Made by a program: the position numbers and the translations under genes. Shown one piece after another: positions 1,190 to 61,615 of a stretch of 64,000 nt of DNA. Source of the stretch: a virus; the IMG/VR virus record IMGVR_UViG_3300050505_000421, positions 26,579-90,578 of that record; one strand, given 5' to 3'. How positions within the stretch are numbered: the stretch's first letter is position 1; every line of letters starts with the position of its first letter. The notes under the pieces were generated by a model that saw only the letters and a program-made list of their open reading frames with translations, was not told the DNA's origin and did not search any database.

Positions 1190-1714
1190 GTGGGCCCGAG
1201 CAGACAACACAACTTCGGGACGATCTGTCCGTTGAACTGCTGGGGGGAGGTACGCTGCCCGTGTCTCTGTCACGGGGCGCAAGCCTACGCCGGCGCACCG
1301 GAGTTTGTCGGTAAGTGGGCCAGCCGTGAGGGCGGCAGCCACCACACCCGGCTGGTCATCACGGATTCAGCGACCAGTGAAGTCCTGGGCAAGGCCCCAA
1401 TCGCCGTTGGCTTCGTCGCGTTGTCCCGCGAGGGTACCGTCGAGTCAGAGCTCTACATGATGAACCTCTTCAACGGATCGTCCGCCATGGCCGAGATCAT
1501 CAAGACCTTCAACCCCGTGATGCAGCGGATCGACCTCGAGTACGCGCCGTCCTGGGAGCCAATCTTCACGCCGGCGCAGCGCCTCGAGAAGGCCGCGCGC
1601 TGGGTCGCGACGGCCCTCCGGGGCTCGGACAAGGGCCGCGACCTCCAACTCGAGAAAGATCTCATTCAGGTCCTTGCGCACCGGGTCAAGTTCGAGGGGC
1701 TGTACTTGAAGTAG
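1190..1714 (+). CDS. hypothetical protein with N-terminal Cys cluster
   Basis: CPLNC..CPCLCHG motif; GAGGAGG upstream. Confidence 0.65.
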   Translation: MGPSRQHNFGTICPLNCWGEVRCPCLCHGAQAYAGAPEFVGKWASREGGSHHTRLVITDSATSEVLGKAPIAVGFVALSREGTVESELYMMNLFNGSSAMAEIIKTFNPVMQRIDLEYAPSWEPIFTPAQRLEKAARWVATALRGSDKGRDLQLEKDLIQVLAHRVKFEGLYLK

Positions 1715-1721
1715 GTCCTCA

Positions 1722-1738
1722 CTTCTTCCTTGTGTTTG
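1722..1738 (+). repeat. 17-bp element A (exact)
   Basis: 7 nt after stop 1714. Confidence 0.95.
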
Positions 1739-1755
1739 GTTCAGGAGCAACGGCG

Positions 1756-2094
1756 ATGGACGTTCCGGAAAAATTGACTTGGAAAACCAAGGATGGGCGC
1801 GTCATTCCGATCGAGGAGATGTCGGACGGACACCTCCTCTGCACGCTGCGTTGGATGCGGCGGCACTGGCGGGTGAAGCTCGAGCACGTGAAGATTGGAG
1901 CCATGGCGGCGGGCTACGCTGCGACTGCGCCTGATGGAGCAGCGGTAGCTGCTTGCGATGCGATTGTTGAAGCATACGAGATTGCCTTTGGCGACCGCTT
2001 GGCACCGAACGAAACGACAGCGCGCGCCTTCCCACGCCCTTTCTGGGCGATGAAGGCGGAGGCGGACTACCGGGGGTTGAAAGAATACGAGTAG
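1756..2094 (+). CDS. hypothetical phage protein
   Basis: AGGAG upstream; WKTKDGRVIPIEEMSDGHL resembles a common small phage protein motif. Confidence 0.65.
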   Translation: MDVPEKLTWKTKDGRVIPIEEMSDGHLLCTLRWMRRHWRVKLEHVKIGAMAAGYAATAPDGAAVAACDAIVEAYEIAFGDRLAPNETTARAFPRPFWAMKAEADYRGLKEYE

Positions 2095-2112
2095 CGCGTT
2101 TTGTGTGTAGAC

Positions 2113-2129
2113 CAAACACAAGGAAGAAG
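2113..2129 (-). repeat. 17-bp element B (exact)
   Basis: CAAACACAAGGAAGAAG, 6 nt before ATG 2136. Confidence 0.95.
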
Positions 2130-2135
2130 GATCAT

Positions 2136-2435
2136 ATGAGCAGAACGCCGGGGGTTTGGGGCGCGACGAAGGAAGAGATCGAGGGGGGTGGTTGGACGAT
2201 CACGGCGCAAACCAGGGGCAAGCGTGTCGTGGTAGGCCGTGTTCTGCGACAGGTTGATGCGCGCCTTGTTGCGTTCGCACCTGACGTAGTTGACGCGGCG
2301 GTGGTCCTGCTCGACTGCTTGGAGCGAATGGACATTCCGGGCGTCGAGCGGAGTTCTATGTTGCAGGACGCGATGGAAACACTCGGGGGCTTCGTCGAGT
2401 GTGCACAGAACCCTGACGGCCTTGAGGACGAATGA
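2136..2435 (+). CDS. hypothetical phage protein (TPGxW-type)
   Basis: MSRTPGVW...DARLVAFAPD; preceded by motif B as RBS. Confidence 0.7.
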   Translation: MSRTPGVWGATKEEIEGGGWTITAQTRGKRVVVGRVLRQVDARLVAFAPDVVDAAVVLLDCLERMDIPGVERSSMLQDAMETLGGFVECAQNPDGLEDE

Positions 2436-2665
2436 GCGAGCCGCGCGCCATCGGCCGTTGCCTCGCCTGCGCTACGTGGGTCTACGGAGACGAATACCTG
2501 CCCGAGATGTGCCCGCAGCGCTACATCACGCCGCACACCGAGGCCTTCATGGATCTGGTGGCGCAGGAACTCGCAGCTGTGGATGCCTTGAAGGCACCAT
2601 CGCGTGTGCAGCACGAGGAGGCGATTCAGAAGGCACTGTTGCGGTACAACGAGGAGGAACGATGA
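2432..2665 (+). CDS. hypothetical protein
   Basis: ATGA overlaps; CxxC and CxxxH. Confidence 0.6.
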   Translation: MSEPRAIGRCLACATWVYGDEYLPEMCPQRYITPHTEAFMDLVAQELAAVDALKAPSRVQHEEAIQKALLRYNEEER

Positions 2666-4141: not shown

Positions 4142-4678
4142 ATGCCGCGAACAGTGAAAGAAGTCTATCCGGAAGGGTGGAAAGAGCAGTACGACAGGAT
4201 CTCTCGGCTGGCGCGTAAGTTGGGCGTGCGTCTCTGCAAGCGTGTCGCCGCGGACAGCGCGCAGTGGAATGGACGTTCGATCGCGTTGTACGGCTTCGAA
4301 GGCGAACGCCTGTCACCGTCCGAGCTCATTCATGAGATCGCACACTGGCTGTGCGCCTCTCCTGCCCGCCGGCGCTTGTACGACTACGGTCTTGGGAGCG
4401 GGAACTTCTCCAACATGGCGGTGCGCCGTGTAGATGGGATAGACGATGATGAAGAGCAGGCCAGCCTGCTCGGGATCCTGTTCGAACGCGCCTTTGCCAT
4501 GAACTGGGAGCAGACCTGGGAGGACCACAACTGGGCGGGCCACAACCGGTGGGCGGAGTTGGGCGAATGCTCCTGGGAGGGGTACAGCAACTTCTGGTGC
4601 ACCCTCGCAACGTTATACAAGCGACGACTCGTCAGGCTAAACGGTACGCCACGAACACTCTTTTCTCCTTGTGTTTGA
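4142..4678 (+). CDS. EpmC (EF-P hydroxylase)-like HExxH metalloprotein
   Basis: HEIAHWLCASPARRRLYDYG closely follows the recalled EpmC/YfcM core HEISHWCIAGKARRELVDFG. Confidence 0.55.
   Translation: MPRTVKEVYPEGWKEQYDRISRLARKLGVRLCKRVAADSAQWNGRSIALYGFEGERLSPSELIHEIAHWLCASPARRRLYDYGLGSGNFSNMAVRRVDGIDDDEEQASLLGILFERAFAMNWEQTWEDHNWAGHNRWAELGECSWEGYSNFWCTLATLYKRRLVRLNGTPRTLFSPCV
4661..4677 (+). repeat. 17-bp element A (3 mismatches)
   Basis: TTTTCTCCTTGTGTTTG overlapping stop 4678. Confidence 0.8.
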
Positions 4679-4738
4679 CCTGCACGTGCTTTAGATAAGA
4701 TGGTGTAGACCCGTATGGGTCACGCGTGGGAGCGCGAC

Positions 4739-11716: not shown

Positions 11717-11970
11717 TGAAAACCCTGTCGCAATTCGACATCGACCCTTGGACGATCATCACCGTGGACGGAAAGGTTCCGTCCAGTCCGAACGGCGCAA
11801 TCCACTGGGTCAATGGCCAGGAGGCAGCTGAAGTCGAAGCCAAGCAGTGGGGGGCTCTCCCTGTCTCCATCGCGCTTCTCGAAGCCTTCTATGCTGTGTG
11901 GTTGGAGACTGGTGACTACCAGCTAACGGCCGAAGAACCGAGTGAGACCAAGCACAAGGAAGAGAAGTGA
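11716..11970 (+). CDS. hypothetical protein
   Basis: TGATG overlap; ends inside motif B. Confidence 0.55.
   Translation: MKTLSQFDIDPWTIITVDGKVPSSPNGAIHWVNGQEAAEVEAKQWGALPVSIALLEAFYAVWLETGDYQLTAEEPSETKHKEEK
11949..11965 (-). repeat. 17-bp element B (2 mismatches)
   Basis: CAAGCACAAGGAAGAGA, 1 nt before GTG 11967. Confidence 0.9.
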
Positions 11971-12578: not shown

Positions 12579-12585
12579 GCACCAC

Positions 12586-12602
12586 TTTCTTCCTTGTGTT
12601 TG
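12586..12602 (+). repeat. 17-bp element A (1 mismatch)
   Basis: 7 nt after stop 12578. Confidence 0.95.
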
Positions 12603-12644
12603 ACTTGATCGTGCGTAGGATGTCTACAGAGGATGGGTTAAACC

Positions 12645-14361: not shown

Positions 14362-14814
14362 ATGAAGACCGAGACGCTGAAGGAATTGCAGGTGGTAGCG
14401 AACGATCTAGTGCAACGCATCGCCACGATCATCGACACAACGCGGGTCGCTGAGTTCAAGAACATCGTCGACAAGACGTTCGCGTTGGAAGGGACGAACG
14501 CCGTCGTCGCCAGGGTCGACACCAATGGCGCGAAGAAGACGAAGGCGCCGACCGCCAACGGGAAGCGCGGGCGTCCGGCGTCGAAGGACTACGAGGGCCT
14601 TCTGCCGGGGCTGGCTGTGATGCTGATCCGGGCAGGGGAGAACGGCCTTGAGCCGGGCGCCATGGGCAAGGTGTTCCACATGACCCTCGGGCAGCGGCAG
14701 GCCTTCGTACGCCTGGCAACAACGCGTGGTGTTCTTCGTTCAACGGGCGCCAAGCGTGGCACGCGCTACTTCCCGGGACCCGGCGCCAAGGCGCGCGCCA
14801 AGGAAGCATCCTAA
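14362..14814 (+). CDS. putative nucleoid-associated/DNA-binding protein
   Basis: KRGRP AT-hook-like segment, C-terminal winged-helix-like LRSTGAKRGTRYF; GAGGAG RBS. Confidence 0.6.
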   Translation: MKTETLKELQVVANDLVQRIATIIDTTRVAEFKNIVDKTFALEGTNAVVARVDTNGAKKTKAPTANGKRGRPASKDYEGLLPGLAVMLIRAGENGLEPGAMGKVFHMTLGQRQAFVRLATTRGVLRSTGAKRGTRYFPGPGAKARAKEAS

Positions 14815-14831
14815 CTTCTTCCTTGTGTTTG
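14815..14831 (+). repeat. 17-bp element A (exact)
   Basis: Immediately after stop 14814. Confidence 0.95.
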
Positions 14832-14844
14832 ACCGAAAGGAAAC

Positions 14845-15060
14845 GTGATGGAAGGTCACAAGAAGAAGTTCGCTAGTCTCACTCCGCGGGAGAAACAGAT
14901 CGTGGTGGCGATAGTGGACGGGAAGGCCACGAATCTGATCGCAGAGCAGTTGGGTGTCAGCGTGCAGACGGTGCGGACGCACGTGCAAAACACCTTCCGC
15001 AAGCTGGCGATGCACTCGCGGCTCGAGCTCGTCGCTGCGTGGCATCGGGCTCGCCCGTAG
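14845..15060 (+). CDS. LuxR/GerE-type HTH regulator
   Basis: LTPREKQIV...G..TNLIAEQLGVSVQTVRTHVQNTFRKL..HSRLELV. Confidence 0.9.
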   Translation: MMEGHKKKFASLTPREKQIVVAIVDGKATNLIAEQLGVSVQTVRTHVQNTFRKLAMHSRLELVAAWHRARP

Positions 15061-15709: not shown

Positions 15710-15900
15710 CCGCGATCGAGACGGCCTACGAACTGCAGCACGGCCAAGCCTCGCCGCGCGTGGTGTTCGAGGCTTGGTGCATCGCGGCGCGCCAAGCGGT
15801 CTCTGTGTATGACAAGGAAGTCTGTGTCGACCACGCGCGGCGCTATGCGCGGTACATGCTGGGGTGGGAGCGGTTTCACGAACGGATGACCCATGAGTGA
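15706..15900 (+). CDS. hypothetical protein
   Basis: Overlaps both neighbours. Confidence 0.55.
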   Translation: MTAIETAYELQHGQASPRVVFEAWCIAARQAVSVYDKEVCVDHARRYARYMLGWERFHERMTHE

Positions 15901-16594
15901 TGACGATCGCAACCCAGCCTTGTTCCTGCCGTTTGCCCTCGCGTCGGACGCGTCTGGACTGACGTCCGGGCGTTTGATTCGCATGGCCAAGCGCGGGTCG
16001 ATTACCACCCGTATGTTCGGGCCTGTAAGTTACGTCTACTGGCCAACCGTGGTCGCGGCGTTGCCGCCCCTAGTCGTGAAGATCCTGGAACTCTCCGCGC
16101 TCGTCCTTCCGGCGCGACGTACACACGCAGAACTACTGCAACTTCTGCACGGCAAGGGCTTCGTGGACATCACAGCGGCGCGCAGCGCGGTCGGCGCAGG
16201 GCGGAGTTCATTCTACCGCTGGATCAAGACGGGTAAGATCGCGATGTTCCGCCTCGACCGGAAGATCTTCCTGAAGTGGTCGGAGCTTCTGAAGGTTCTG
16301 GGCGCGTTCGCGGAGATCACGCACCTGGACCCCAAGAAACCGCCTGTGCCCAAGATCTTCGGCGCCGCTCGCCAACCGCAGGGCCCTCGTCTGATGCCGG
16401 GCTCCCTCATCGCCAAGCGGCTGCGTGCGGAAGGCTTCGTCTCCGTGCGTGAGGCCGCGCGGGAAATCGGGCTGGGTGAACACGTCCTGCGGAAGCTCGT
16501 GACAAAGGGCGAGGACGGGATTCGGTCTCGTCGCTGGGGCTCCTCTGTTCTGGTCAACCTGGAGTCCGTGCAACGGCTCGTTCAGGGCAAGTAG
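15893..16594 (+). CDS. triple Xis/MerR-like HTH DNA-binding protein
   Basis: Three units: LIRMAKRGSI, ITAARSAVGAGRSSFYRWIKTGKI, SVREAAREIGLGEHVLRKLV. Confidence 0.7.
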   Translation: MSDDDRNPALFLPFALASDASGLTSGRLIRMAKRGSITTRMFGPVSYVYWPTVVAALPPLVVKILELSALVLPARRTHAELLQLLHGKGFVDITAARSAVGAGRSSFYRWIKTGKIAMFRLDRKIFLKWSELLKVLGAFAEITHLDPKKPPVPKIFGAARQPQGPRLMPGSLIAKRLRAEGFVSVREAAREIGLGEHVLRKLVTKGEDGIRSRRWGSSVLVNLESVQRLVQGK

Positions 16595-16597
16595 TAA

Positions 16598-16614
16598 CTT
16601 CTTCCTTGTGCTTG
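16598..16614 (+). repeat. 17-bp element A (exact, C variant)
   Basis: 3 nt after stop 16594. Confidence 0.95.
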
Positions 16615-16646
16615 GTTGTACAAGGAGATGAGGCTCGACGAGAAGG

Positions 16647-16663
16647 CAAACACAAGGAGAGAG
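16647..16663 (-). repeat. 17-bp element B (3 mismatches)
   Basis: CAAACACAAGGAGAGAG, 4 nt before ATG 16668. Confidence 0.85.
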
Positions 16664-16667
16664 ACGG

Positions 16668-16856
16668 ATGGCGACGAAGGGGAAGGGCGGGAAGACGAAG
16701 GCAAAGGCTCGTACGAAGAACCGCAAGCAGTCGTGTGGCGTGTGCAACAAGGCGGGGCACAATTCGAGGCGCTGTCCAACGCGTAGCGCCCCGGCGAGTG
16801 TCACTGTGGAAGCGGACTACGACACTTCGTTCTTGTTTGATGATGACGACTTCTAG
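16668..16856 (+). CDS. basic CCHC zinc-knuckle protein
   Basis: CGVCNKAGHNSRRC = CX2CX4HX4C; Lys-rich N-terminus, acidic C-terminus. Confidence 0.75.
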   Translation: MATKGKGGKTKAKARTKNRKQSCGVCNKAGHNSRRCPTRSAPASVTVEADYDTSFLFDDDDF

Positions 16857-19358: not shown

Positions 19359-19360
19359 AC

Positions 19361-19377
19361 CAAGCACAAGGAAGAAG
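19361..19377 (-). repeat. 17-bp element B (exact)
   Basis: 1 nt before ATG 19379. Confidence 0.95.
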
Positions 19378-19378
19378 A

Positions 19379-19987: not shown

Positions 19988-19990
19988 TAA

Positions 19991-20007
19991 CTTCTTCCTT
20001 GTGCTTG
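19991..20007 (+). repeat. 17-bp element A (exact)
   Basis: 3 nt after stop 19987. Confidence 0.95.
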
Positions 20008-20026
20008 GTCTGCACGCGGAGAGTTC

Positions 20027-21608: not shown

Positions 21609-24600
21609 ATGACGTGGCACGATGACGCGCCGTTCCGGCTGGATGACAGCTTCATTGCGCGGTACGCGGGTAAGCAACCGCTCTGGGGACCGATCGGTTA
21701 CGTGACTTACAAGAGGACGTACGCGCGCAGTCGGGACAGTGTACCGGAGCGAATCATCGATCTCGGGCAACGCTTTGGTGTTTGGGATCTCGGTGGAGCT
21801 AGCGGAGCCGCGTCAGAGGAGTTCTGGTTGACGCTTGTCCGCGTAACGGAAGGTACGTACAGAATCCAGCAACAGCACTGTATCAAGCATCGCTTGCCTT
21901 GGAGCAATGAGAGGGCGCAGCGGTCGGCGCATGATTTCTTCGACCGTATGTGGACGTTCAAGTGGCTGCCGCCGGGTCGCGGGCTCTGGATGATGGGAAC
22001 GGATTATGTTGATCGTTGCGGTGGGGCCGCGCTTAACAACTGCGCGTTTGCGTCCACGGATCGACTCGACATCCTGTTCTCGGCGCCGTTCACGTTTTTG
22101 ATGGACATGTCCATGCTCGGTGTCGGTGTGGGAGGGGACACCAAGGGCGCGGGCAGTGTCCGTATTCAGATGCCAGCGACCGACGTAGAACCTTACGTTG
22201 TCGCGGACTCTCGTGAGGGTTGGGTCGAGCTTGTGCGCCGTACCCTAGATGCCTATGTCGGCGTCGGCGCGTTACCTGTAAACGTCGATTACTCTCAGAT
22301 CCGGCCGATTGGCAGCCCGATCAAGGGTTTTGGCGGGACAGCTGCAGGGGCTAGTCCACTACTGGAACTGTACAACACGATCCGCGACATCTTGGGTCCA
22401 TTGGTCGGTCGGAAGATCACATCGACTGCGATCGTCGATCTTTTCAACGTCATCGGGCGCTGTGTTGTTGCCGGGAACATTCGGCGTAGCGCTGAGATTA
22501 TGTTCGGGGAGCCTGGTGACTCCGTGTTCTTGAAGTTGAAAGACCCAACGCAGATCAGCGCCCTCGAAGAACAGCATCGCCAAGCTGTTGCCGCGGGCGT
22601 GCGTGCTGAGGTGAGTGCTGCCATCGCAGCGCGCATCGCAGCACATCCACTGAAGGCGTGGCGCTGGGCTTCAAACAACACGCAACTTGCTGTTGTCGGT
22701 ATGGACTACGCGGAACCGGCCGAACTGACTGCAAAGAACGGGGAGCCTGGGTACATGTGGCTCGAGAATGCGCGTGCGTACGGGCGGATGACCGATCCGC
22801 CCAATAACCGCGATCACCGTGCCGCTGGCGGTAACCCTTGTGTCCCAGCCGGAACGCTAGTGCTGACCCGTGAAGGATACCGCTCGATCGAGAACCTAGT
22901 CGGGATGCGCGTTCAAATTTGGAATGGCGCCCAGTGGTCATACGTCGAGCCGCGCGTCACCGGGCGTAACGAACGAATGGTCCGTGTTCGGCTCTCCGAC
23001 GGGACGAGCCTCACCTGCACTGAGTATCACGAATGGCTGACGACCGAGGGGCGCAGGCGTGCCGTCGACCTGATGCCTGGCGATGCGCTGGAGAAGGTGT
23101 CGATGCCGCTCGTCGAGTCCGGAGTACCGTTCACGCACGCTTACACGCACGGGTTCTTCTGCGGGGACGGCCAGGTCTCTGAAAGCGGATCGAAAGGTGC
23201 GCTCCTCTGCGGCGAGAAGATGCGACTCGTTGAGCATTTGGAGGGACAGACGACGGGCGAGGTCGACGAGTATGGACGTCTCTGGTTCGGCATGCCGCGG
23301 ACCATGGCCGAGAAGTTCGTCGTGCCGCTGGACGCAACGGTGTGTGACCGGATTGCGTGGTTCGCGGGTCTGCTCGACGCTGACGGTTGCGTCGTCCGCA
23401 ACCTCCACAGTGTCGGACTCCAGATGACGAGCGTGAATCTGGATTTCCTGCTCCGAGTGCGTCTGATGCTTACGACGCTCGGGGTACAGGCGAAGGTAAC
23501 ATCCCGCGACGGGAGCGCCTGGACGCGGGAGATGCCAGACGGTCGCGGCGGGGTGAAGAGCTACGAACGCCAACAGCTATACCTCCTGTCGGTCAATGCG
23601 ACGGACACTTACAACCTGCGCAGGATGGGACTAGCGACCCGGCGACTCGATGTCCCGCTTGCAAAGCCGCAACGAGATGCTCGGCGATTCGTCACCGTCG
23701 AGGAAATCGACCGCCTGGGCTTTGCCGATGTCGTCTACTGTTTCAACGAGCCATTTCGGCACGCCGGCTGTTTCGACGGGATCGTGACTGGGCAATGCCT
23801 GGAGCAGACGCTCGAGTCATTCGAAACTTGCTGTTTGGTTGAGACGTTTCCCTCACTTCATGATTCCTATCAGGACTACGAACGCACGCTGAAGAAAGCG
23901 TATATGTACGCTAAGACGGTCACGCTTGTGCCAACGCACGACGAACGCACGAACGCCGTCATGCTGCGGAATCGACGGATCGGTTGCTCGATGTCCGGCA
24001 TTGTTCAAGCCATGAATCGGCACGGGCGTCGTTCATTCTTGAAGGACTGGTGCAATCGTGGATATGCGTACCTGACCGAACTCGACAACATGTACTCCGA
24101 TTGGTTGTGCGTGCCGCACTCTATCAAGATCACCAGCGTGAAACCGTCGGGTACCGTCAGCTTGCTGCCGGGTGTAACACCAGGCATCCACTTTCCGCAC
24201 GACGCGTACTACTTCCGGGTCATCCGATTCGACACAGCGTCGCCCCTCGTTCGAATCTTGCGGGCCGCTGGTTACCGTTGTGAGGAGATCGATCCCCGCA
24301 AGGAACCGAACACGACGGCGGTGTATTTCGCCGTCGCCGAACCGTTCTTTGCGCGCGGGAAACGGGACGTCTCCATGTGGGAACAGTTGGAGATGGCTGC
24401 GCAGATGCAAGCGTACTGGGCAGACAACCAAGTCAGTTGCACGGTCACGTTTCAAGCGCACGAAGCCAAGGACATCAAGCACGCACTGGAACTATACGAG
24501 ACGCGCCTCAAGGGGATTTCCTTCTTGCCCTTCATGGATGAAGCCGACCAATACAAGAGTCGCGGTTTTGAGCACGTGCCGTATCAGGCAATCGACCGCG

Positions 24601-24728
24601 TTACCTATGAAGACTACGTCGCCAAGTTGCAGCCGCTTGATTTGAACTCTGTCCGCGCAGAGGTCGTGGATAAGTTCTGCGATGGACCGATCTGTGACCT
24701 GCCGCAAAAGGCCGGAATCACATCCTGA
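21609..24728 (+). CDS. nrdJ: class II (B12-dependent) ribonucleotide reductase, intein-containing
   Basis: TYKRTYAR, PPGRGLW, NNCAF, GNIRRSAEI, NP|CLE, ITSVKPSGTVS, C-terminal CDGPIC. Confidence 0.95.
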   Translation: MTWHDDAPFRLDDSFIARYAGKQPLWGPIGYVTYKRTYARSRDSVPERIIDLGQRFGVWDLGGASGAASEEFWLTLVRVTEGTYRIQQQHCIKHRLPWSNERAQRSAHDFFDRMWTFKWLPPGRGLWMMGTDYVDRCGGAALNNCAFASTDRLDILFSAPFTFLMDMSMLGVGVGGDTKGAGSVRIQMPATDVEPYVVADSREGWVELVRRTLDAYVGVGALPVNVDYSQIRPIGSPIKGFGGTAAGASPLLELYNTIRDILGPLVGRKITSTAIVDLFNVIGRCVVAGNIRRSAEIMFGEPGDSVFLKLKDPTQISALEEQHRQAVAAGVRAEVSAAIAARIAAHPLKAWRWASNNTQLAVVGMDYAEPAELTAKNGEPGYMWLENARAYGRMTDPPNNRDHRAAGGNPCVPAGTLVLTREGYRSIENLVGMRVQIWNGAQWSYVEPRVTGRNERMVRVRLSDGTSLTCTEYHEWLTTEGRRRAVDLMPGDALEKVSMPLVESGVPFTHAYTHGFFCGDGQVSESGSKGALLCGEKMRLVEHLEGQTTGEVDEYGRLWFGMPRTMAEKFVVPLDATVCDRIAWFAGLLDADGCVVRNLHSVGLQMTSVNLDFLLRVRLMLTTLGVQAKVTSRDGSAWTREMPDGRGGVKSYERQQLYLLSVNATDTYNLRRMGLATRRLDVPLAKPQRDARRFVTVEEIDRLGFADVVYCFNEPFRHAGCFDGIVTGQCLEQTLESFETCCLVETFPSLHDSYQDYERTLKKAYMYAKTVTLVPTHDERTNAVMLRNRRIGCSMSGIVQAMNRHGRRSFLKDWCNRGYAYLTELDNMYSDWLCVPHSIKITSVKPSGTVSLLPGVTPGIHFPHDAYYFRVIRFDTASPLVRILRAAGYRCEEIDPRKEPNTTAVYFAVAEPFFARGKRDVSMWEQLEMAAQMQAYWADNQVSCTVTFQAHEAKDIKHALELYETRLKGISFLPFMDEADQYKSRGFEHVPYQAIDRVTYEDYVAKLQPLDLNSVRAEVVDKFCDGPICDLPQKAGITS
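22839..23795 (+). mobile_element. intein with LAGLIDADG homing endonuclease (319 aa)
   Basis: Begins CVPAGTLVLTREG after GGNP; HGFFCGDG and FAGLLDADG blocks; ends GIVTGQ before C+1. Confidence 0.92.
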
Positions 24729-25367: not shown

Positions 25368-25369
25368 AC

Positions 25370-25410
25370 CGAACACAAGGAAGAAAGACACCACTTCTTC
25401 CTTGTGTTTG
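25370..25410. repeat. element B (25370-25386) then A (25394-25410), inverted pair
   Basis: CGAACACAAGGAAGAAA-GACACCA-CTTCTTCCTTGTGTTTG between stop 25367 and portal. Confidence 0.95.
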
Positions 25411-40142: not shown

Positions 40143-40181
40143 TCTTCTTCCTTGTGGTTGGTTGAACCGCAGGAAAGAAGA
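40143..40181. repeat. element A (40144-40160) paired with degenerate B (40165-40181)
   Basis: TCTTCTTCCTTGTGGTT-GGTTG-AACCGCAGGAAAGAAGA, 16/17 pairs incl. 2 G:U and a compensatory G-C. Confidence 0.85.
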
Positions 40182-44582: not shown

Positions 44583-44583
44583 A

Positions 44584-44600
44584 CTTCTTCCTTGTGCTTG
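44584..44600 (+). repeat. 17-bp element A (exact)
   Basis: 1 nt after stop 44582. Confidence 0.95.
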
Positions 44601-44607
44601 GTGACAC

Positions 44608-47149: not shown

Positions 47150-47173
47150 CGCAGGATGCTGTAAGCTTCAGGG

Positions 47174-47190
47174 CAAGCACAAGGAAGAAG
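47174..47190 (-). repeat. 17-bp element B (exact)
   Basis: Directly abuts ATG 47191. Confidence 0.95.
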
Positions 47191-47610
47191 ATGCCGGGTC
47201 TACCGATTGAAGGAAAGCAGAGCTTCTTGGGCTACGGCCTGGTTCTTCCGTTCGCCCGAACGGGTGGCGCGGACTTTCGCGCCGCGGGTGGGGCTACGCT
47301 CGTTTCCTCGTGCGTGAGTCAGATCGTTGGAACGGTTCAAGGAGAGTTGCGCTGGCGCCCTTCTTTCGGCTTGGACGCGGAGAAACTTCGGCACAAGAAC
47401 ATGAACGAAGGGCTCGAGGAACTCGGACGGCAGAAGGTCGCGGACGCGGTGAGCACTTGGGAGCCGCGTGTCGCAATCATCGATGCCGAAGTGCTTCGAG
47501 AGCAAACAGAGCGGACGCTGCGCATCCGAATCGTGTGGACGATCGAGGCCCGGAACAACCCGCGCAACCGCGTGCTCATTGATCCGATCACGCAGGAGGT
47601 GCCGATCTAA
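47191..47610 (+). CDS. baseplate wedge gp25/gpW-like
   Basis: GELRWRPSFG...WEPRV. Confidence 0.85.
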   Translation: MPGLPIEGKQSFLGYGLVLPFARTGGADFRAAGGATLVSSCVSQIVGTVQGELRWRPSFGLDAEKLRHKNMNEGLEELGRQKVADAVSTWEPRVAIIDAEVLREQTERTLRIRIVWTIEARNNPRNRVLIDPITQEVPI

Positions 47611-50825: not shown

Positions 50826-50828
50826 TGA

Positions 50829-50845
50829 CTTCTTCCTTGTGCTTG
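50829..50845 (+). repeat. 17-bp element A (exact)
   Basis: 3 nt after stop 50825. Confidence 0.95.
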
Positions 50846-50858
50846 ACGGAGGTTGCGC

Positions 50859-50957
50859 GTGGACATTGATGTAGACGAGCTCGACATCGATCTTGGAGAG
50901 GCCCTGCTCGCGGATCTAGAAGTGGATGCGTACGAGTTGGTCTTCGTCGACAGCTAG
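50859..50957 (+). CDS. 32-aa acidic micropeptide
   Basis: GGAGG RBS, MDIDVDELDIDLGEALLADLEVDAYELVFVDS*; fills gap exactly; below ORF-track cutoff. Confidence 0.55.
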   Translation: MDIDVDELDIDLGEALLADLEVDAYELVFVDS

Positions 50958-56190: not shown

Positions 56191-56194
56191 GGCC

Positions 56195-56235
56195 TTTCTT
56201 CCTTGTGTTTGGGCTAACCAAGCACAAGGAAGAAA
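56195..56235. terminator. motif A/B hairpin between convergent genes; probable bidirectional terminator
   Basis: TTTCTTCCTTGTGTTTGG-GCTAA-CCAAGCACAAGGAAGAAA, 18-bp stem with one G:U; no U tract. Confidence 0.6.
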
Positions 56236-56238
56236 GAT

Positions 56239-56901
56239 TCAAACCCCACGGACGAGGAGCCCGGCGAGATCGCGGTGGTCGGCGCCGATCGTTGAGGAGG
56301 TAACACTGGAAGTTCTCTGCCAGTGAATCTCGACGAGGTCGCCTTCAACGAGGTCTGGAGTTGTGTAGTTGATGGAGACGTTAACGGCTTCGACATCGTC
56401 CGTTCCAGTTGGGTACCGCTTGGTCTTTATGTCGCCGTTGATTCTGAGTGTTACCGTGGCGAGAACACGCTTCCCGAGTTCGAGTGCGTAGACGGACGTA
56501 GAGAAACTGAAGTTCCATTTCCCGGCACCGTTCGCGGGAATGGTCAATTGCATTCCAGGGATGAGCTCGTCTGTGAATACAGCTACATTCGTAACTGCGT
56601 CCTCGGCGTGCACATTCAAACTGACGGGGGCCGCGTCGAATTCGCCTCCGATAGCGCGAATGAGCGAGTCGAGGAAACCCGGCACATGGTAGGCCGCGCC
56701 TGTCGTCTTTCGGTCGCCTCGAACGATGATCGGTGCGCCGGGTGTGCCGATGCCTGTTTGAAGGTCCGGATCTCCACTCGCGTCCGCGATGGCCTGCAGG
56801 CGCGCTTTGATGGCGTCGCTCGTGCTCATGTCTTCCGGAGGCGGAGGGCCGCCTGAAGTTGTGTCGCCGGGCCAGTAACCAAGCGGCCAGTAGCCTGCCA
56901 T
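56239..56901 (-). CDS. structural protein with C-terminal beta-sandwich
   Basis: ORF in coupled minus-strand run. Confidence 0.7.
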   Translation of the reverse strand: MAGYWPLGYWPGDTTSGGPPPPEDMSTSDAIKARLQAIADASGDPDLQTGIGTPGAPIIVRGDRKTTGAAYHVPGFLDSLIRAIGGEFDAAPVSLNVHAEDAVTNVAVFTDELIPGMQLTIPANGAGKWNFSFSTSVYALELGKRVLATVTLRINGDIKTKRYPTGTDDVEAVNVSINYTTPDLVEGDLVEIHWQRTSSVTSSTIGADHRDLAGLLVRGV

Positions 56902-56907
56902 TGTTGT

Positions 56908-58026
56908 TTAGCTTCCATTCAGTACGATGGCGGTGCGGTTTCCAGTCGCTGTATCCACCGTGGCTGTGATTCGATTCGTTGTTCCGTTGCGCGCCTTGAA
57001 GTGAATCGTGGTCGTGGTCCCACCGTCCGACACTCCTGCGAGTGCAGCCAGGATGATTCGCATGAACTCCGCGAATGTTTTACTGTCCTCGAGCACGAAT
57101 GCAAACACAGCGGAGGCAATCGCAGCGAGTGCGTCGACGGCGAGTGCGTCTGCGTCTACGGCTCCAGTCGCGATGCTCGCAGCAGTGATGCCGCCTGCGG
57201 CTACAGACCCAACGCTTCCGGTCACGCTGGCGACGCTGCCCGTGACCGATCCCTGCACGCTCGCGACGCCCTGCCCGAAGCTGCCTGCCGTGACGTGGCC
57301 GGCTCGCGCCTCGTCCCACACCTTGTCGGCGATCGTGTCCTCTTCACCAGACGTCAGGGCATAGCCGGTCTTGTCCCCGACGACCTGTGCGTTCGCGTCC
57401 ACTCGGTTCGAGATGAGTGCGTTCGGTGTTCCGCCGGCGTTGTCCGTCAGCCAGCGGAGCAGCATCGACTGCACGTAACCGTTCGTCGTGAGGGCCGCTG
57501 GCGCAGCTGCAAGCCAGAGCTTCACGTCGCTCGGGACCTTACCGGAAGAGAGAGCGTCAGGAGCAGCGGTGAGCCAGAGCTTGATGTCAGCGGGGACTTT
57601 ACCGGAGGAGAGCGCGTCTGGCGTCACGGTGAGCCACTTGTTCACATTGACGTTCTGGTCCGCGGTGATCTCCACGCCGCCGGTGGCGTCCACGTCGATC
57701 CCGCGGCCCGAGACGTTTGGGTAAGCAAGGTCGTCTTCTAGGCGCGCATGAACACGGAATTGGAGGTTGATCTGCTTCGTCCCGGGCGCGGAGAACGACA
57801 GGGAAAGGATTCCGAGCGTGTCCGTATGCGAACTGGAGAGGGTGATTCCGTACCAACCCAGGCTGGCCTCCGTCACAGTGACCGTCATTGCGTTGATTGT
57901 GGTGGATCCGCCCTTGCTGATGCTCTTCGTCCAATCGCCTGTCACGAGGTCCGTGACCGGGTCGCCGTTCGCGTCGTACGCAAAGAACAGCACATCCAAG
58001 GCCGTCGATTGCTTGAGGGGATACAT
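56908..58026 (-). CDS. virion structural protein with 20-aa repeats
   Basis: KLWLTAAPDALSSGKVP repeats; C-terminal ILAALAG...NRITATVD..GNRT. Confidence 0.8.
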   Translation of the reverse strand: MYPLKQSTALDVLFFAYDANGDPVTDLVTGDWTKSISKGGSTTINAMTVTVTEASLGWYGITLSSSHTDTLGILSLSFSAPGTKQINLQFRVHARLEDDLAYPNVSGRGIDVDATGGVEITADQNVNVNKWLTVTPDALSSGKVPADIKLWLTAAPDALSSGKVPSDVKLWLAAAPAALTTNGYVQSMLLRWLTDNAGGTPNALISNRVDANAQVVGDKTGYALTSGEEDTIADKVWDEARAGHVTAGSFGQGVASVQGSVTGSVASVTGSVGSVAAGGITAASIATGAVDADALAVDALAAIASAVFAFVLEDSKTFAEFMRIILAALAGVSDGGTTTTIHFKARNGTTNRITATVDTATGNRTAIVLNGS

Positions 58027-58029
58027 GGC

Positions 58030-58239
58030 TCAGAACACCCTGTCCCAGACGCGGCCGAAAACGTGGGCGAATATGGCGCGCGCCTGTTGTCCCACGCCGA
58101 TTGGGCTCTTGAGTGGAAGCTGCCACTTCGTCTCGCCTGTACTCGGCAGCGATTCCGTATCGCTGTAGACACGGGTATTCAACTGGTCATGCATTCCCAT
58201 GTGCATTAGGGATGGACCCGGGCCGGCGAACTTGATCAT
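58030..58239 (-). CDS. hypothetical protein
   Basis: ATGA overlap with upstream stop. Confidence 0.55.
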   Translation of the reverse strand: MIKFAGPGPSLMHMGMHDQLNTRVYSDTESLPSTGETKWQLPLKSPIGVGQQARAIFAHVFGRVWDRVF

Positions 58240-59405
58240 GACCACACCACCTCTCCGCCGCCCGTCAACGTGAACGGGAGCGCGGCCGGTCCCCACGCAA
58301 TCATCGAGAGACAAGCGCCGTCGAGAATACGCTCTCCGGAAGCGACTCCGATGATCGTGTCCATCATTGTCGGATCGTGTGCGATCGGCAGGGGGAGAAT
58401 TGCCAGGGGCCGCGCGAGCACCCAAGTGATTGTACCCGTATTGTTCGCGCTGAACGTGCGGTTGTCGATCAACTGGACGCCGCAGTCCCCAACCGCGAGC
58501 GGGAGGAACGGCCCCCAGACGAGCGTGGCGGCTGCGGTGCAAGGCGCGATTATCCGGGCGCCGATCGTCGTCGTCGGTGTGGCAGCAGCCGTGATTGTGG
58601 CCACTGTCGGAGTCGTCGGCATGGACTGCAGCGTGTTTCCGTCCTGATCCGTATACTGGAATTGCGTTAGGTTAGCCGCAGTAGCACCCGTCAGAGATTC
58701 AACGCAGACCATCGGCTTCAGGCCGTCGCCGGTCGCTGTCCCGGCTGTTCCGAGATAGCGTGCGGCCGGTAGCGTGTTCGTCATGACGACGTTTGCGTTG
58801 GTAATCGTTCCCGCTTCGTACGTTAAGACTCGATCGTAGAGGATGATCGTCGTGAAGGAGTTGCCGGCAGCACCGCTGGAGTCGGTGAGCCCGCCCCAAA
58901 AGAAGGACAAGTGTTTTGTCTCGGCGCTCTTGTTCCCGTCGTGCCAGATCGCGCCGGCTTCTGTATCATCGTGGGGCTTCGCCGTGTGTGCCGTCCCGCC
59001 GTACGCGCCCGCGCCGGGCGCTCCGCCAACCGGCCAGAGGTCGTACCAGTTGCCCGTCGTCGTGGTCCCGGTCGCCGTCTTCTGAAACTGGAACGGGAAG
59101 CGCTTGCCCTGGCGCTGCGCCTTGCGAACGCTCTCGTAGGTTGGGAACCCCGCGAGGTCCAGGGTCGGCCGCCGTCGCTCGCCGGGCATCTCGCGCCGCC
59201 ACCAGACACCGCGCCCGGGCATCCACCAGGGATCGGAGAACACCCACCCGAGCCGCTGCCCGCCGTGGAACACCGGCACGGGCGCCTGGTCGAGCCCGGC
59301 GCCGGCGAGAAGCGCCGCGCGCCACGCCCGGTCCTCTGCGCTCGGTCCGCCGCGCGACTTCCGCGGGAGCCCGACGAGGGCGGGGGCCTGTGCCTCGACC
59401 TGCAT
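58236..59405 (-). CDS. virion structural protein, paralog 2 (389 aa)
   Basis: TGATG overlap; aligns end to end with 59800-60969. Confidence 0.8.
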   Translation of the reverse strand: MQVEAQAPALVGLPRKSRGGPSAEDRAWRAALLAGAGLDQAPVPVFHGGQRLGWVFSDPWWMPGRGVWWRREMPGERRRPTLDLAGFPTYESVRKAQRQGKRFPFQFQKTATGTTTTGNWYDLWPVGGAPGAGAYGGTAHTAKPHDDTEAGAIWHDGNKSAETKHLSFFWGGLTDSSGAAGNSFTTIILYDRVLTYEAGTITNANVVMTNTLPAARYLGTAGTATGDGLKPMVCVESLTGATAANLTQFQYTDQDGNTLQSMPTTPTVATITAAATPTTTIGARIIAPCTAAATLVWGPFLPLAVGDCGVQLIDNRTFSANNTGTITWVLARPLAILPLPIAHDPTMMDTIIGVASGERILDGACLSMIAWGPAALPFTLTGGGEVVWS

Positions 59406-59797
59406 CAGGCGGCGTCCCCGTCGCGCACGAAGCCGTGCCAGTTGCAGCCACCCACCAGTTGGACGGACGCCGCGTCCGGTCCAACGAACGTCAGGTCGTC
59501 GATGCCGGTCCCGGCCGGGCGCCAGCGTCCAGGTTTCGGCTGCGTGTCGTCTGGAACACCGCGGTCGGCGAACCAGCAGATCACCGCGTGGACGCCAACG
59601 TTCGAGCGCCCGTTCGCCTCGAAACACTTTGGGCAGAGGAACCAAAGCCCCTGGGCCTCGGAGAGGTTCTCCACCGGCACGTAGCGCTGCCTGGGTCCCG
59701 TGATCTCCTCACGATCACCGTCCGGACGAACGCGCACCCACGTCGTGATGTACTCCTCGATTCGGTAGAAATGGGCTTCGAGATCGCGTAGTCGCAT
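59405..59797 (-). CDS. DUF6527-like Cys/His protein
   Basis: FLCPKC...W...DLTF...GGCNWHGFVRDG. Confidence 0.6.
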   Translation of the reverse strand: MRLRDLEAHFYRIEEYITTWVRVRPDGDREEITGPRQRYVPVENLSEAQGLWFLCPKCFEANGRSNVGVHAVICWFADRGVPDDTQPKPGRWRPAGTGIDDLTFVGPDAASVQLVGGCNWHGFVRDGDAA

Positions 59798-59799
59798 CG

Positions 59800-60969
59800 T
59801 CAGCTCCACGCCACGGAGCCGCCGCCGTTCGCGGTGAACGCCGTCGTCGTCGGGACGAACGCGTAGAGCGCGAGCGCGGCGCCGTCGATGATGCGCTCGA
59901 GGGAGGTGACCCCGTGTACTGAGTTGATCACTGTGGAGTCCCCCGCCGTCGGGCACGGGATCACAGCAAGCGGGCGCGCCAGGATCCACGTGATGGTCCC
60001 CGTGTTGTTCGCGCTCCACGTGCGGTTGTCGATCAGGAACACGCCTCCGTCGCCGACGGCCAGCGGGATGAACGCGCCCCACGGGAGCGTCGCCCCCGAC
60101 GTTGCGGGACATACCACACGTGCCCCAATCGTCGCCGTCGCCGCTGTTGCTGCTGTGATGTGGGAAACAGTCGGCGTCGTGGGCATCGACTGAAGGGTGT
60201 TTCCTGATTGATCCGTATACTGAAATTGCGTTAGGTTCGATCCGGTAGCACCAAGGTTCGTCTCGACGCAACACATTGGCTTCATCCCGCCACCCGTGGC
60301 GGTACCTTCCGTGCCGAGGTACCGAGTGGCTGGCAGTGTGTTGGTCAAAACAACGTTGACGTTCGAGATCGTCGAGGCCTCGTACGTGAGGACGCGGTCG
60401 TAGAGCACGATCGTCGGGTTCTGCGCGCTGCACATCCCCCAGACCATCGTGAGGTGCTTCGTCGCCGTGCTCTTGTTCCCACCATGCCAGATCGTCCCCG
60501 CCGTTGTGTCATCGATCGGCTTGGCGGTGTGCGCCGTCCCGCCGAACACCCCGGGGTTCTGGCCCGACGCCCAGAGATCGTAGAAGTTCCCGGCGAGGGA
60601 GGCCGTCGTTTGAGTCTTCGACCACGGCCCGAAGTTGAACTTCTTACCCGTGGTATTCGCTTCCACGATTTTATCGAACGTCGGGAAGCCGGCGAGGTCC
60701 ATCGTCGGCTTGCGGCGCTCGCCCGGGAACTCGGGACGCCACCAGACGCCGCGCGCCGGCGCCCACCACGGGTCCGAGATCACCCAACCAATCCTTCGGC
60801 CGTCGAGGTAGACCGGAAGCGGCCACTGGTCGCAACCGCGGGCAGCGGCGAGCGCCCCACGCCAGGCTGTGTCCTGCTCACTCGGGGACGATCGCGACTT
60901 TCGAGCGAGTCCGATCAAACCCGGAGCCTTGGACTCCACACCCACATCGACTGTGTTGAATCCGGCCAT
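59800..60969 (-). CDS. virion structural protein, paralog 1 (389 aa)
   Basis: AG.FYDLW...LYDRVL...QYTDQSGN motifs; paralog of 58236-59405. Confidence 0.8.
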   Translation of the reverse strand: MAGFNTVDVGVESKAPGLIGLARKSRSSPSEQDTAWRGALAAARGCDQWPLPVYLDGRRIGWVISDPWWAPARGVWWRPEFPGERRKPTMDLAGFPTFDKIVEANTTGKKFNFGPWSKTQTTASLAGNFYDLWASGQNPGVFGGTAHTAKPIDDTTAGTIWHGGNKSTATKHLTMVWGMCSAQNPTIVLYDRVLTYEASTISNVNVVLTNTLPATRYLGTEGTATGGGMKPMCCVETNLGATGSNLTQFQYTDQSGNTLQSMPTTPTVSHITAATAATATIGARVVCPATSGATLPWGAFIPLAVGDGGVFLIDNRTWSANNTGTITWILARPLAVIPCPTAGDSTVINSVHGVTSLERIIDGAALALYAFVPTTTAFTANGGGSVAWS

Positions 60970-60981
60970 GCGATCTCCAGT

Positions 60982-61248
60982 CTACTGCGGCGGCGTGCGG
61001 TGGCGCCAGCCAGGAATGGACGGAGCAACGGCGGAATCACGTGTCCCGTACAGAACAAGCTCTGGAATAGCGGCGGCCGTCCAACTGCACGCGCGTACCG
61101 CCAAGCCGAGCTCGCCTGCGCGGCGAACAGCCTTCGCCTTCAAGTCTTCCCGGTCCCTGCCCTGCGTGTCACGAACCTCGACCGTCTTCGTGACCTGCGA
61201 GCGCCCATCAACTCGAGCGACTTCGAAGATCTTCACTTTTGCTTGCAT
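60982..61248 (-). CDS. hypothetical protein
   Basis: Fills gap in minus-strand run. Confidence 0.6.
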   Translation of the reverse strand: MQAKVKIFEVARVDGRSQVTKTVEVRDTQGRDREDLKAKAVRRAGELGLAVRACSWTAAAIPELVLYGTRDSAVAPSIPGWRHRTPPQ

Positions 61249-61251
61249 GAC

Positions 61252-61581
61252 TCAGCCCTTCCTGAAACCGGGACAGTCTTCGTAGGCTGTGACCTTTGTG
61301 CGCGCAGCCAGGACGTAGGGACAAAGAGCGCGCTCTCCGATAGGCGGTACAGCGAGACCGTTCTGCGCGCCCCACTTGCGCAACCAACTGCAGGATCCGT
61401 CGTCCCCAAGACGCTGGCAAAGACGGCGCACCGGCATCTGTTCTCTGATCTCGTTCAGTAGTTTCTGGCTCGGGATGATACCCTGCGCCCATAAAGCTAA
61501 GGCGCGGTCGACAAGGCGCCGGCCTTGCCCGTCCGCCCGGCACTTCCCCCGGGCGTCCTGAAGCCACTCCACCAGTTCCAT
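61252..61581 (-). CDS. hypothetical Cys-containing protein
   Basis: MELVEWL...; upstream part of the track ORF overlaps a plus-strand gene so start placed at 61581 (uncertain). Confidence 0.55.
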   Translation of the reverse strand: MELVEWLQDARGKCRADGQGRRLVDRALALWAQGIIPSQKLLNEIREQMPVRRLCQRLGDDGSCSWLRKWGAQNGLAVPPIGERALCPYVLAARTKVTAYEDCPGFRKG

Positions 61582-61598
61582 CGAACGCAGGATAGCAT

Positions 61599-61615
61599 CT
61601 CTTTCCTTGTGTTTG
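61599..61615 (+). repeat. 17-bp element (2 mismatches); reads as B for the minus-strand block
   Basis: CTCTTTCCTTGTGTTTG; minus strand CAAACACAAGGAAAGAG upstream of first minus-strand gene. Confidence 0.85.

Follow-up and report, generated by a model that had tools for sequence, protein, structure and literature searches.

The start-associated sequences (SAS) and extended SAS (ESAS) of cluster K mycobacteriophages are asymmetric repeats present in 11 to 19 or more copies per genome, and their function has not been established (PMC3203893). Stoperators of the cluster A (L5-type) phages are 13-mers that are bound as DNA by a monomeric immunity repressor and lie in one orientation relative to transcription (PMC9283540). 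Here, we describe a 19-base, asymmetric element with the consensus ACCAARCACAAGGAAGAAG that recurs throughout a stretch of 64,000 nucleotides, referred to below as the window, from an uncultured soil phage (IMG/VR virus record IMGVR_UViG_3300050505_000421). Copies in the sense of the local genes (B) mostly end just ahead of start codons, antisense copies (A) mostly begin just past stop codons, and the two are complementary. We regard the element as a regulatory repeat of a kind that is uncommon in phages but has precedents, with SAS as the nearest described system, and we see about an even chance that it acts mainly at the RNA level, as complementary Shine-Dalgarno (SD) and anti-SD arms.

Like SAS, the element contains the SD core and lies just upstream of starts (3 to 7 nt for SAS and 0 to 6 nt here), is conserved beyond the needs of 16S rRNA pairing, and sometimes overlaps the upstream stop. 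The two are unrelated in sequence, as SAS are 13 bp long with the consensus GGGATAGGAGCCC. SAS are almost wholly in one orientation, whereas 20 of the 44 copies described here are reversed and lie past stops, and the ESAS inverted repeats do not support RNA pairing, whereas the paired copies here do (PMC3203893). SAS are also confined to the nonstructural arm, whereas our element is spread through the head, tail, and baseplate modules. With stoperators, it shares the presence of more than 20 asymmetric sites in short intergenic gaps at gene boundaries and a phage-specific consensus that differs between relatives. Unlike stoperators, it occurs in both orientations on the same operons, carries an SD sequence, and has paired copies that change compensatorily; no repressor or integrase was found here, and small helix-turn-helix (HTH) proteins are encoded. 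The C1 operators of P1 are another instance of asymmetric multicopy DNA operators.

Sequestration of the SD sequence by RNA pairing is known from the long-distance coat-replicase interaction of MS2 and from the early-transcript hairpins of T4 e and soc. As in those cases, a complementary segment would mask a ribosome-binding site (RBS), to be opened by a ribosome or another 5' end. Those interactions are single and gene specific, however, whereas our phage employs a common pair of arms some 45 times over, with half of the copies lacking a partner nearby. RNase III stalks flank the 16S and 23S rRNAs, and the early mRNA of T7 has RNase III sites. The resemblance lies in duplexes of about 17 to 20 bp that form from distant or local complementary segments and delimit RNA units. 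The arms of our element differ in not being private to each unit, and its duplexes are predicted; no phage RNase III was found in the contig.

The window comprises bases 26579 to 90578 of one 137,073-bp contig with a GC content of 0.61 and a completeness rating of 84%; positions below are those of the window unless marked as genome positions. The phage is present in rhizosphere metagenomes (seven DNA runs), and no RNA run is among the sequencing runs listed for it. Gene calling by codon statistics gave 207 genes at 89% coding density. Genes point leftwards over the initial 17 kb and rightwards between 18 and 82.8 kb, and their directions are mixed thereafter. The contig encodes a portal, prohead protease, major capsid protein, tail sheath, tube, tape measure, and baseplate proteins, and the phage is therefore a myovirus. 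Outside the window lie a family A DNA polymerase, helicases, a terminase, and five tRNA calls by aragorn at four loci.

A position weight matrix (PWM) built from the element's own copies identified 48 sites at a score of at least 16 across the contig, compared to none in a shuffled genome. Within the window, the 11-mer core CACAAGGAAGA occurs 19 times with at most one mismatch, compared to 0.88 expected matches. Forty of the 48 sites lie mostly inside the noncoding 11% of the genome, and once four weak intragenic copies were set aside, 24 forward (B) and 20 reverse (A) copies remained. Element positions 3 to 5, 7 to 14, and 17 and 18 hardly vary, and at position 6, any base except T occurs. 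As RNA, the B arm (5'-CCAARCACAAGGAAGAAG) is purine rich and carries the SD sequence of the next gene, and the A arm (5'-CUUCUUCCUUGUGYUUGG) is a pyrimidine-rich anti-SD sequence; the two are complementary over 17 to 19 nt.

The placement of the copies follows the limits of genes. Among the forward copies, 17 of 24 end -1 to 6 nt ahead of a start codon, which puts AAGGA at SD distance; the general SD sequence of this phage is AGGAG, GGAGG, or AAGGA. Reverse copies begin 0 to 13 nt past the stop of the preceding codirectional gene, and several abut it as TAA or TGA followed directly by CTTCTTCC. Of the 17 reverse copies with codirectional flanks, 15 are separated by a shorter distance from the stop on their upstream side than from the start that follows (binomial P = 0.002; Fisher combined P = 1.7e-4). 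The original prediction, which had placed A right after stops and B right before starts with AAGGA at SD distance, is thus borne out, and every coordinate listed in it could be verified. Its extension to the minus strand also holds, with a B at 61598..61617 and an A at 56217..56236, the latter 2 nt from the stop at 56239. Two copies, at 201..220 and 25393, add to its list. Because only the ribosome reads both start and stop codons, these landmarks point to the RNA level.

The rule has exceptions. The B at 25368 lies right past a stop with no start next to it, and those at 34720 and 61598 are 14 to 16 nt ahead of their starts. Reverse copies at genome positions 3197 and 115664 lie away from a stop, and that at 201..220 (minus orientation; PWM score, 35.8), although 3 nt past the stop at 197, sits inside the first codons (I-F-F-L-V-F-G) of the next gene. 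Two other functions that such placement might suggest were rejected. Reverse copies do not serve as the RBS of overlooked antisense genes, as the coding scores of all open reading frames (ORFs) behind them are negative. Nor is the element a promoter, since forward copies run into the start codon and reverse ones would fire antisense. Sigma-70-type promoters and U-tract terminators were not enriched at the element or wherever else we looked, and a search for a T7-type RNA polymerase gave no match, but the control for that search was also silent.

Where A and B lie close together, they form local stems of 15 to 19 bp. Adjacent A-loop-B pairs occur at 16597/16645, 34690/34720, 56194/56217, and genome 134368/134338, and adjacent B-loop-A pairs occur at 25368/25393 and genome 101702/101722. 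Right past the stop at 25367 and 49 nt ahead of the portal gene, the B-loop-A hairpin at 25368..25412 (B, 25368 to 25387; A, 25393 to 25412) has a folding energy of -25.6 kcal/mol on the sense strand and -23.6 kcal/mol on the antisense strand. Between the adaptor stop at 34686 and the neck gene start at 34754, the A-loop-B hairpin at 34690..34739 (A, 34690 to 34709; B, 34720 to 34739) reaches -25.1 kcal/mol sense compared to -14.6 kcal/mol antisense. Behind the tail tube gene (stop at 40129), a hairpin at 40143..40181 combines an A arm at 40143 to 40159, within a full A copy at 40143 to 40162, with a degenerate B-like arm at 40165 to 40181 (16 pairs, -20.8 kcal/mol). The convergent junction at 56194..56236 holds a 19-bp A-loop-B hairpin, formed by the A at 56194 to 56213, 3 nt past the plus-strand stop at 56190, and the A of the minus-strand block already mentioned (-32.1 kcal/mol on the plus strand and -26.4 kcal/mol on the minus strand). 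Each of the 11 hairpin regions that we folded was more stable on the transcribed strand than on the opposite one, with 27 versus 9 G.U pairs; part of this set was chosen from sense-strand folds and carries that selection bias, and in the subset defined by the matrix only, the sense strand was more stable in five of five. A transition bias and the variable position 6, compared for RNA and DNA, pointed in the direction of RNA pairing without reaching significance.

Pairing is also predicted over longer distances. When whole stretches of 0.7 to 1.7 kb from a B to an A were folded, the B:A pairing dominated thermodynamically with probabilities of 0.81 to 0.93, and for a 2.6-kb unit, the fold of lowest energy paired A with 17 of the 20 bases of B. 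These folds imply that B and A on one ribosome-free RNA should pair unless prevented, and yet the genome keeps both orientations on the same messages. The predicted stems also have the length typical of RNase III substrates (a duplex of about 17 to 20 bp from flanking complementary segments). No U-tract or T-run stands behind any A/B hairpin, and none was called as a rho-independent terminator.

A comparison with a relative allowed the element to be followed through evolution. No close relative was found in the phage GenBank collection, the best tail sheath match among known phages is 28% identical, and in IMG/VR and Joint Genome Institute (JGI) metagenomes, sheath identity was only 38 to 50% and the element was absent from those loci. 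Searches for the 18-mer elsewhere (IMG/VR and 111 GTDB stretches) returned single, chance-level matches only, and one candidate relative, L002, turned out to be the same phage. A large protein collection yielded a closer relative, referred to as Rel1, with a tail tube that is 78% identical. Rel1 lies on a 65.7-kb ENA contig, of which 48.4 kb was recovered by walking, and two JGI contigs belong to the same phage as Rel1. It is collinear with positions 30.9 to 62 kb of the window at 45 to 78% protein identity (about 65%). Its element reads CAARCACAAGGG(A/T)RGRA, so that the core CAARCACAAGG is the same and the purine tail differs in both orientations: the tail is AAGGAAGAAG in our phage and AAGGG[A/T]RGRA in Rel1, and A and B have changed jointly. 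The T variants of Rel1 fall into the neighboring pairs 17439/21086 and 33452/34441, an arrangement expected by chance with a probability of about 1/6. Further relatives, from the samples of P0004 to P0006, reach 64 to 67% tube identity.

Seven orthologous junctions keep their copies in the same orientation in the two phages. These are the A after the adaptor gene followed by the B before the neck gene (34690/34720; Rel1 5042/5086), the hairpin at the 3' end of the tube gene (40143; Rel1 10502/10515), the A filling the gap behind a 110-amino-acid (aa) gene (44583; Rel1 14869), the B running into the ATG of a gp25-like gene (47172; Rel1 17439), the A behind a 231-aa gene (50828; Rel1 21086), the B ahead of the minus-strand block (61598; Rel1 28721), and a forward copy behind a ParB-like gene (genome 104712; Rel1 45439). 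In pairwise intergenic alignments, the element stands out as the conserved block, and loops and flanks have diverged. Solo copies are therefore kept by selection and are not decaying debris.

The two orthologous hairpins show how the arms change. In the upper stem of nine pairs at the tube junction, the two phages are distinguished by double changes from U.G to A-U and from G-C to U-A and by one single change from U.G to U-A, with no disruptive change. An automatic two-sequence alignment of this hairpin kept three pairs with both sides changed; such alignments partly misalign the 3' arms, and the register was therefore taken from the individual folds. Both tube arms of Rel1 carry a T where the 44 copies of our phage never do, and the 3' arm in our phage scores only 6.4 against the PWM, yet 16 of its 17 positions are paired. 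At this junction, what is conserved is complementarity rather than sequence. At the adaptor-neck junction, the 5' arm is identical over 13 nt in both phages, and the 3' (B) arm carries three substitutions (C to U, A to G, and G to A) that keep pairing through G.U, which is possible on the transcribed strand only; the Rel1 hairpin folds at -30.8 kcal/mol sense compared to -24.2 kcal/mol antisense. For the two sequences compared, the two hairpins together show two double and four wobble-compatible single changes and no disruptive one.

More distant relatives carry hairpins at the same places without the element. In L011, L016, L042, and L180, ordinary GC hairpins lie directly behind the tube gene, and the adaptor-neck junction of another relative, Rel2 (53% identity), reads stop-CCTCCCAT-loop-ATGGGAG followed by an SD sequence and ATG. 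Because plain hairpins occupy the same junctions in distant relatives, hairpins are an old feature of these late operons. In our lineage, they are made from one common pair of arms that also occurs singly. A de novo repeat search among the distant relatives found repeats of their own only in L018, L047, and possibly L016. L047 has a palindrome, GTCCTCCCGGGAGGAC, three times (at 1059, 8510, and 18461), with anti-SD and SD sequences as its arms and with two of the three copies 3 nt past a TAG stop, and L018 has a 22-bp palindrome, GTTGTAACCTCGAGGTTACAAC, also three times (at 1165, 14790, and 15921). Repeated intergenic palindromes of other phages include the conserved inverted repeats (CIRs) of phiC31 and the 17-bp palindrome of cluster O. 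Like our element, all of these are identical multicopy sequences just past stops between genes, but they are symmetric and always complete, whereas the element is asymmetric, occurs mostly as single arms, and is placed according to orientation.

These old hairpins raise the question of whether hairpins account for everything, with complete pairs acting as terminators, attenuators, or mRNA stabilizers, solo B copies being simply strong RBSs, and solo A copies being functionless half-hairpins left by recombination. The coincidence of element sites with ordinary hairpins of relatives fits such an account, as does the finding that the local partners of solo A copies are no better than chance: only the A at 40143 has a significant local partner compared to 175 other gene starts, and the partners suggested by single folds for the solo A copies at 14814, 19990, 44583, and -2440 were rejected as no better than these control starts. 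Recombination could also be seen in the reverse copies at 16591 to 16616 and 19984 to 20009, which are identical over 26 nt, including the double stop GTAGTAA of two unrelated genes; this identity suggests gene conversion or copy-paste, or else an element that brings its own stop codons. However, the solo copies at 44583, 47172, 50828, 61598, and genome 104712 keep their place, orientation, and core in Rel1, solo reverse copies fit the consensus as well as any others (PWM scores of 32 to 36), and the U-tract that terminators would have is missing. We therefore consider it quite unlikely that hairpins are the whole explanation.

In the RNA-level mechanism that we favor, A and B copies that lie close together would fold into hairpins between cistrons (behind the adaptor and tube genes, ahead of the portal gene, and where genes converge), most likely acting as attenuators, 3'-end stabilizers, or processing sites. 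Where the 3' arm is an SD sequence, the hairpin would mask the downstream RBS. Solo copies would pair with complementary copies on the same or on other messages. A lies against the stop with its CUUCUU end, and B lies against the start with its AAGAAG end; a ribosome that terminates beside A would therefore open precisely that section of the duplex in which the SD sequence is hidden. The roles of pairing could include attenuation, 3'-end protection, RNase III processing, ribosome-relieved masking of the SD sequence, or several of these. The placement, the conservation, the joint and compensatory changes, and the folds are as observed above, whereas we infer that solo copies pair in vivo and that there is an effect on translation, stability, or cleavage.

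Several observations weigh against this mechanism. Forward and reverse copies have information profiles that are statistically equal at all 19 positions, and solo copies and hairpin arms show no significant difference in closeness to the consensus (P = 0.35). The core is the same in two phages whose proteins share only about 65% identity. Equal profiles in both orientations together with a frozen core are as expected of a single sequence-specific reader, such as a DNA-binding protein, although the need for each A to remain able to pair with many B copies would freeze the core as well. The energy of cognate duplexes deviates from the average by a mean of +0.3 kcal/mol, with -27 kcal/mol as the level over all B x A combinations, and the pairing of the 80 nt downstream of solo A copies does not exceed that of random gene starts. 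In the left arm, a single A stands among eight B copies (reading order, B B B B B B A B B), and the major capsid gene, probably the most highly expressed, has no B. The anchoring of A to stops is weaker than it first appears, because the combined P value rises to 0.017 when 12 nt is reserved for the next RBS and because the distance to the next start can be overestimated, as at 50828, where a seeming 118-nt spacer holds GGAGG and a conserved 32-codon ORF (50859..50957). Other compact phage genomes also have stop-anchored intergenic palindromes, and such anchoring is therefore weak evidence when taken alone.

The main rival explanation is a multicopy DNA operator. A phage protein would bind the asymmetric 19-bp site as a monomer and control transcription genome-wide, and the placement of the copies would follow from packing: the SD-like run of a sense copy is tolerated only as an SD sequence, and an antisense copy fits between a stop and the next RBS. 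The equal information at each position in both orientations, including a position 6 that is never T, is consistent with this model, as are the conservation of the core in both orientations in two diverged phages and a stop anchoring that is only modestly significant once the next RBS is allowed for. Possible binding proteins are encoded nearby, namely, a GerE/sigma-r4-like protein of 70 aa at 14848..15060 and an HTH_17 protein at 15893..16594, and Rel1 has a sigma70_r4 gene of 56 aa. More than 20 asymmetric sites per phage genome also have a precedent, but those stoperators act in one orientation (PMC9283540), whereas here, both orientations are nearly equally frequent on the same transcription units. 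The arms of the tube junction both drift from the consensus while complementarity is kept, and arm substitutions are G.U compatible on the sense strand only. In addition, the spacing (0 to 28 nt) and orientation of paired copies vary, with both head-to-head and tail-to-tail arrangements, so that there is no fixed dimer geometry, and no sigma-70-type promoters lie beside the sites. On balance, we think a DNA operator unlikely.

The same frozen core could instead be read as single-stranded RNA by a trans-acting factor, such as a phage small RNA, an RNA-binding protein, or an endonuclease, with the pairing of mRNA copies being incidental. The core is conserved across phages past what SD function needs, and a forward copy stands behind all four tRNA loci, a setting of RNA processing. 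At these loci (Gln; Leu; Ile with an odd tRNA-like call; and Thr), the copy lies within 0 to 26 nt of the tRNA 3' end, at genome positions 4854 to 4873, 10427 to 10446, 101722 to 101741, and 129787 to 129806, all outside the window; the one behind tRNA-Ile forms a B-loop-A hairpin. A small CX2CX4HX4C zinc-knuckle protein encoded behind a B copy might be such a factor, but it has no Pfam match, and no protein is tied to the element. A reader of single strands would not recognize both a sequence and its complement, and a search of the whole contig against Rfam found no family besides tRNA. We judge such a reader very unlikely, and the favored RNA-level role of the element remains the mutual pairing of its own arms.

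The original prediction had further proposed that the copies delimit B-[genes]-A units, either through long-range pairing of mRNA ends or as inverted-repeat-bounded cassettes that are exchanged or inverted. The intervals it listed from a B to the next A do exist as intervals, and the pairing itself is supported by the 17- to 19-nt complementarity, the pairing probabilities of whole-unit folds, and the compensatory and G.U-compatible changes. The discrete units are not specifically supported, as cognate pairs pair no better than others, B prevails in the left arm, and A is in surplus in the plus-strand block (15 A compared to 9 or 10 B). In the plus-strand block only, no strong B is followed by another B without one or more A copies in between (post hoc P = 0.004); the units are unmarked by anything beyond order.

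As for cassettes, the inverted copies would mark recombination boundaries of exchanged or inverted segments, for example, the minus-strand block at 56239..61581 in the tail fiber region. This block is indeed bracketed by inverted copies, and the original prediction had suggested comparing indel breakpoints between relatives with the element boundaries. In the comparable 30 kb, our phage and Rel1 differ in gene content twice. Rel1 has three extra small genes at the convergent junction, exactly at the position of the 56194..56236 hairpin, the counterpart of which is absent; this difference agrees with boundary exchange. Our phage, in turn, has five extra minus-strand genes at 56908..60969 that are absent from Rel1, and the breakpoints of this 4.1-kb difference fall in the middle of the minus-strand unit, far from any copy. 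This segment includes two paralogous 389-aa genes, at 58236..59405 and 59800..60969, with about 71 to 75% DNA identity in blocks, and it is a lineage-specific expansion beside the tail fiber genes. Mu G and P1 C invertible segments and integron-like cassettes come with a recombinase; here, no tyrosine integrase (PF00589) matched anywhere in the record (84% complete), and the sole resolvase (PF00239) match, inside the polymerase region, scored 15.6 bits, below the cutoff, with no other recombinase match. A recombinase acting on 48 copies with the same core would scramble the genome, whereas the seven junctions keep place and orientation, and the units include core structural modules. Exchange or inversion of cassettes is thus not borne out, and we regard recombination boundaries as highly improbable. 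An apparent joint of 12602 to 19358 with GGCT, considered as a deletion variant in four runs examined over positions 1 to 20000, was rejected because it is the 56194..56236 hairpin misplaced onto two other copies; over that region, the four runs gave short identical contigs only.

The remaining copies of the window illustrate the placement rule gene by gene. In the first part, reverse copies lie at 1721..1740, 6 nt past the stop at 1714 and 15 nt ahead of the ATG at 1756; at 4660..4679, as the variant CTTTTCTCC that overlaps the stop at 4678 (PWM score, 22.1); at 12585..12604, 6 nt past the stop at 12578; and at 14814..14833, abutting the TAA at 14812 to 14814, with the GerE-type HTH gene starting 14 nt later. 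Forward copies lie at 2111..2130, ending 5 nt ahead of the ATG at 2136 with AAGGA as the SD sequence, and at 11947..11966, ending directly at the GTG start at 11967 and overlapping the end of the upstream gene. The reverse copy at 16597..16616, 2 nt past the TAGTAA stops at 16594, and a weak forward copy at 16645..16664 (PWM score, 13.6) form a loose hairpin, of which the former is the 5' arm; the latter lies 3 nt ahead of the ATG at 16668. The forward copy at 19359..19378 exactly spans the gap from the stop at 19358 to the ATG at 19379, and a reverse copy follows at 19990..20009, 2 nt past the TAGTAA at 19987. Farther downstream, among the copies shared with Rel1, the reverse copy at 44583..44602 abuts the TGA at 44582 and makes up the whole 25-nt gap, the last base of the forward copy at 47172..47191 is the A of the ATG at 47191 of the gp25-like baseplate gene, and the reverse copy at 50828..50847 begins 2 nt past the TGA at 50825, followed by GGAGG and the small ORF. 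The forward copy serving the minus-strand block, on the minus strand at 61598..61617, lies 16 nt upstream of the ATG at 61581 (PWM score, 19.6).

Some neighboring genes have features of their own. The unannotated ORF at 50859..50957, behind the A at 50828, encodes a very acidic product (VDIDVDELDIDLGEALLADLEVDAYELVFVDS) with its own GGAGG, and its Rel1 counterpart is called as a 37-aa gene. The zinc-knuckle protein mentioned above (62 aa; 16668..16856) has a basic N terminus, an exact CX2CX4HX4C motif (CGVCNKAGHNSRRC), and an acidic FLFDDDDF tail reminiscent of the C-terminal tips of single-stranded-DNA-binding proteins, and its RBS is the weak B of the A/B hairpin. At 27575..29152, a fusion protein combines the prohead protease with a 2',5'-RNA-ligase/2H-phosphoesterase-like domain (PHROG matches to RNA ligase and to head maturation protease), and Rel1 has the same protease-ligase fusion (PF13563 plus PF14550; L183:1036-2508). 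A ribonucleotide reductase of 1,039 aa (21609..24728) gives two matches to the corresponding PHROG profile with a gap between them, suggesting an inserted segment, for example, an intein, and a PD-(D/E)XK nuclease at genome 109963..112221 has intein and LAGLIDADG domains. Genes of the tail fiber region contain in-frame tandem repeats of 105 nt (78% identity; 55394 to 55574) and 60 nt (73% identity; 57490 to 57609). In an NCBI relative with 64% tube identity (GCA_044232415.1), the gene table places an IS605 OrfB/TnpB-type gene on the opposite strand between neck genes. Both ends of the contig (genome 1 to 140 and 137036 to 137073) carry short tandem repeats of a CCGCACTCC-type unit of about 9 to 12 nt, which may be terminal repeats or an assembly edge, and the protein collection also has a 140,483-bp contig with the same proteins.

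Repeats of the SAS type, spread through whole phage genomes, have been unexplained for over a decade, and here, a start-associated repeat is accompanied by its mirror image past stops. The comparison with Rel1 permits evolutionary tests of such a system, and these point to RNA pairing rather than to protein binding alone. If the arms pair in vivo, they would provide a compact and reusable device to couple or silence translation and to delimit messages, which would be of interest for phage gene regulation and would offer a portable 19-nt pair of parts for synthetic operon design. A bolder extension, which we find doubtful, is that the roughly 45 copies constitute a genome-wide RNA-RNA network in which a shared anti-SD arm under the terminating ribosome gates a shared SD arm. 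If so, the end of translation at an A-tagged gene would melt the SD-proximal end of an A:B duplex and so free a B-tagged start brought near the stop by that duplex, or pass ribosomes on to it. This would amount to a bacterial closed loop or to translational coupling at a distance, over kilobases or from one message to another. Competing A copies could then switch hairpin terminators on or off, and accumulating middle and late transcripts rich in A could shut down the early arm, in which B prevails.

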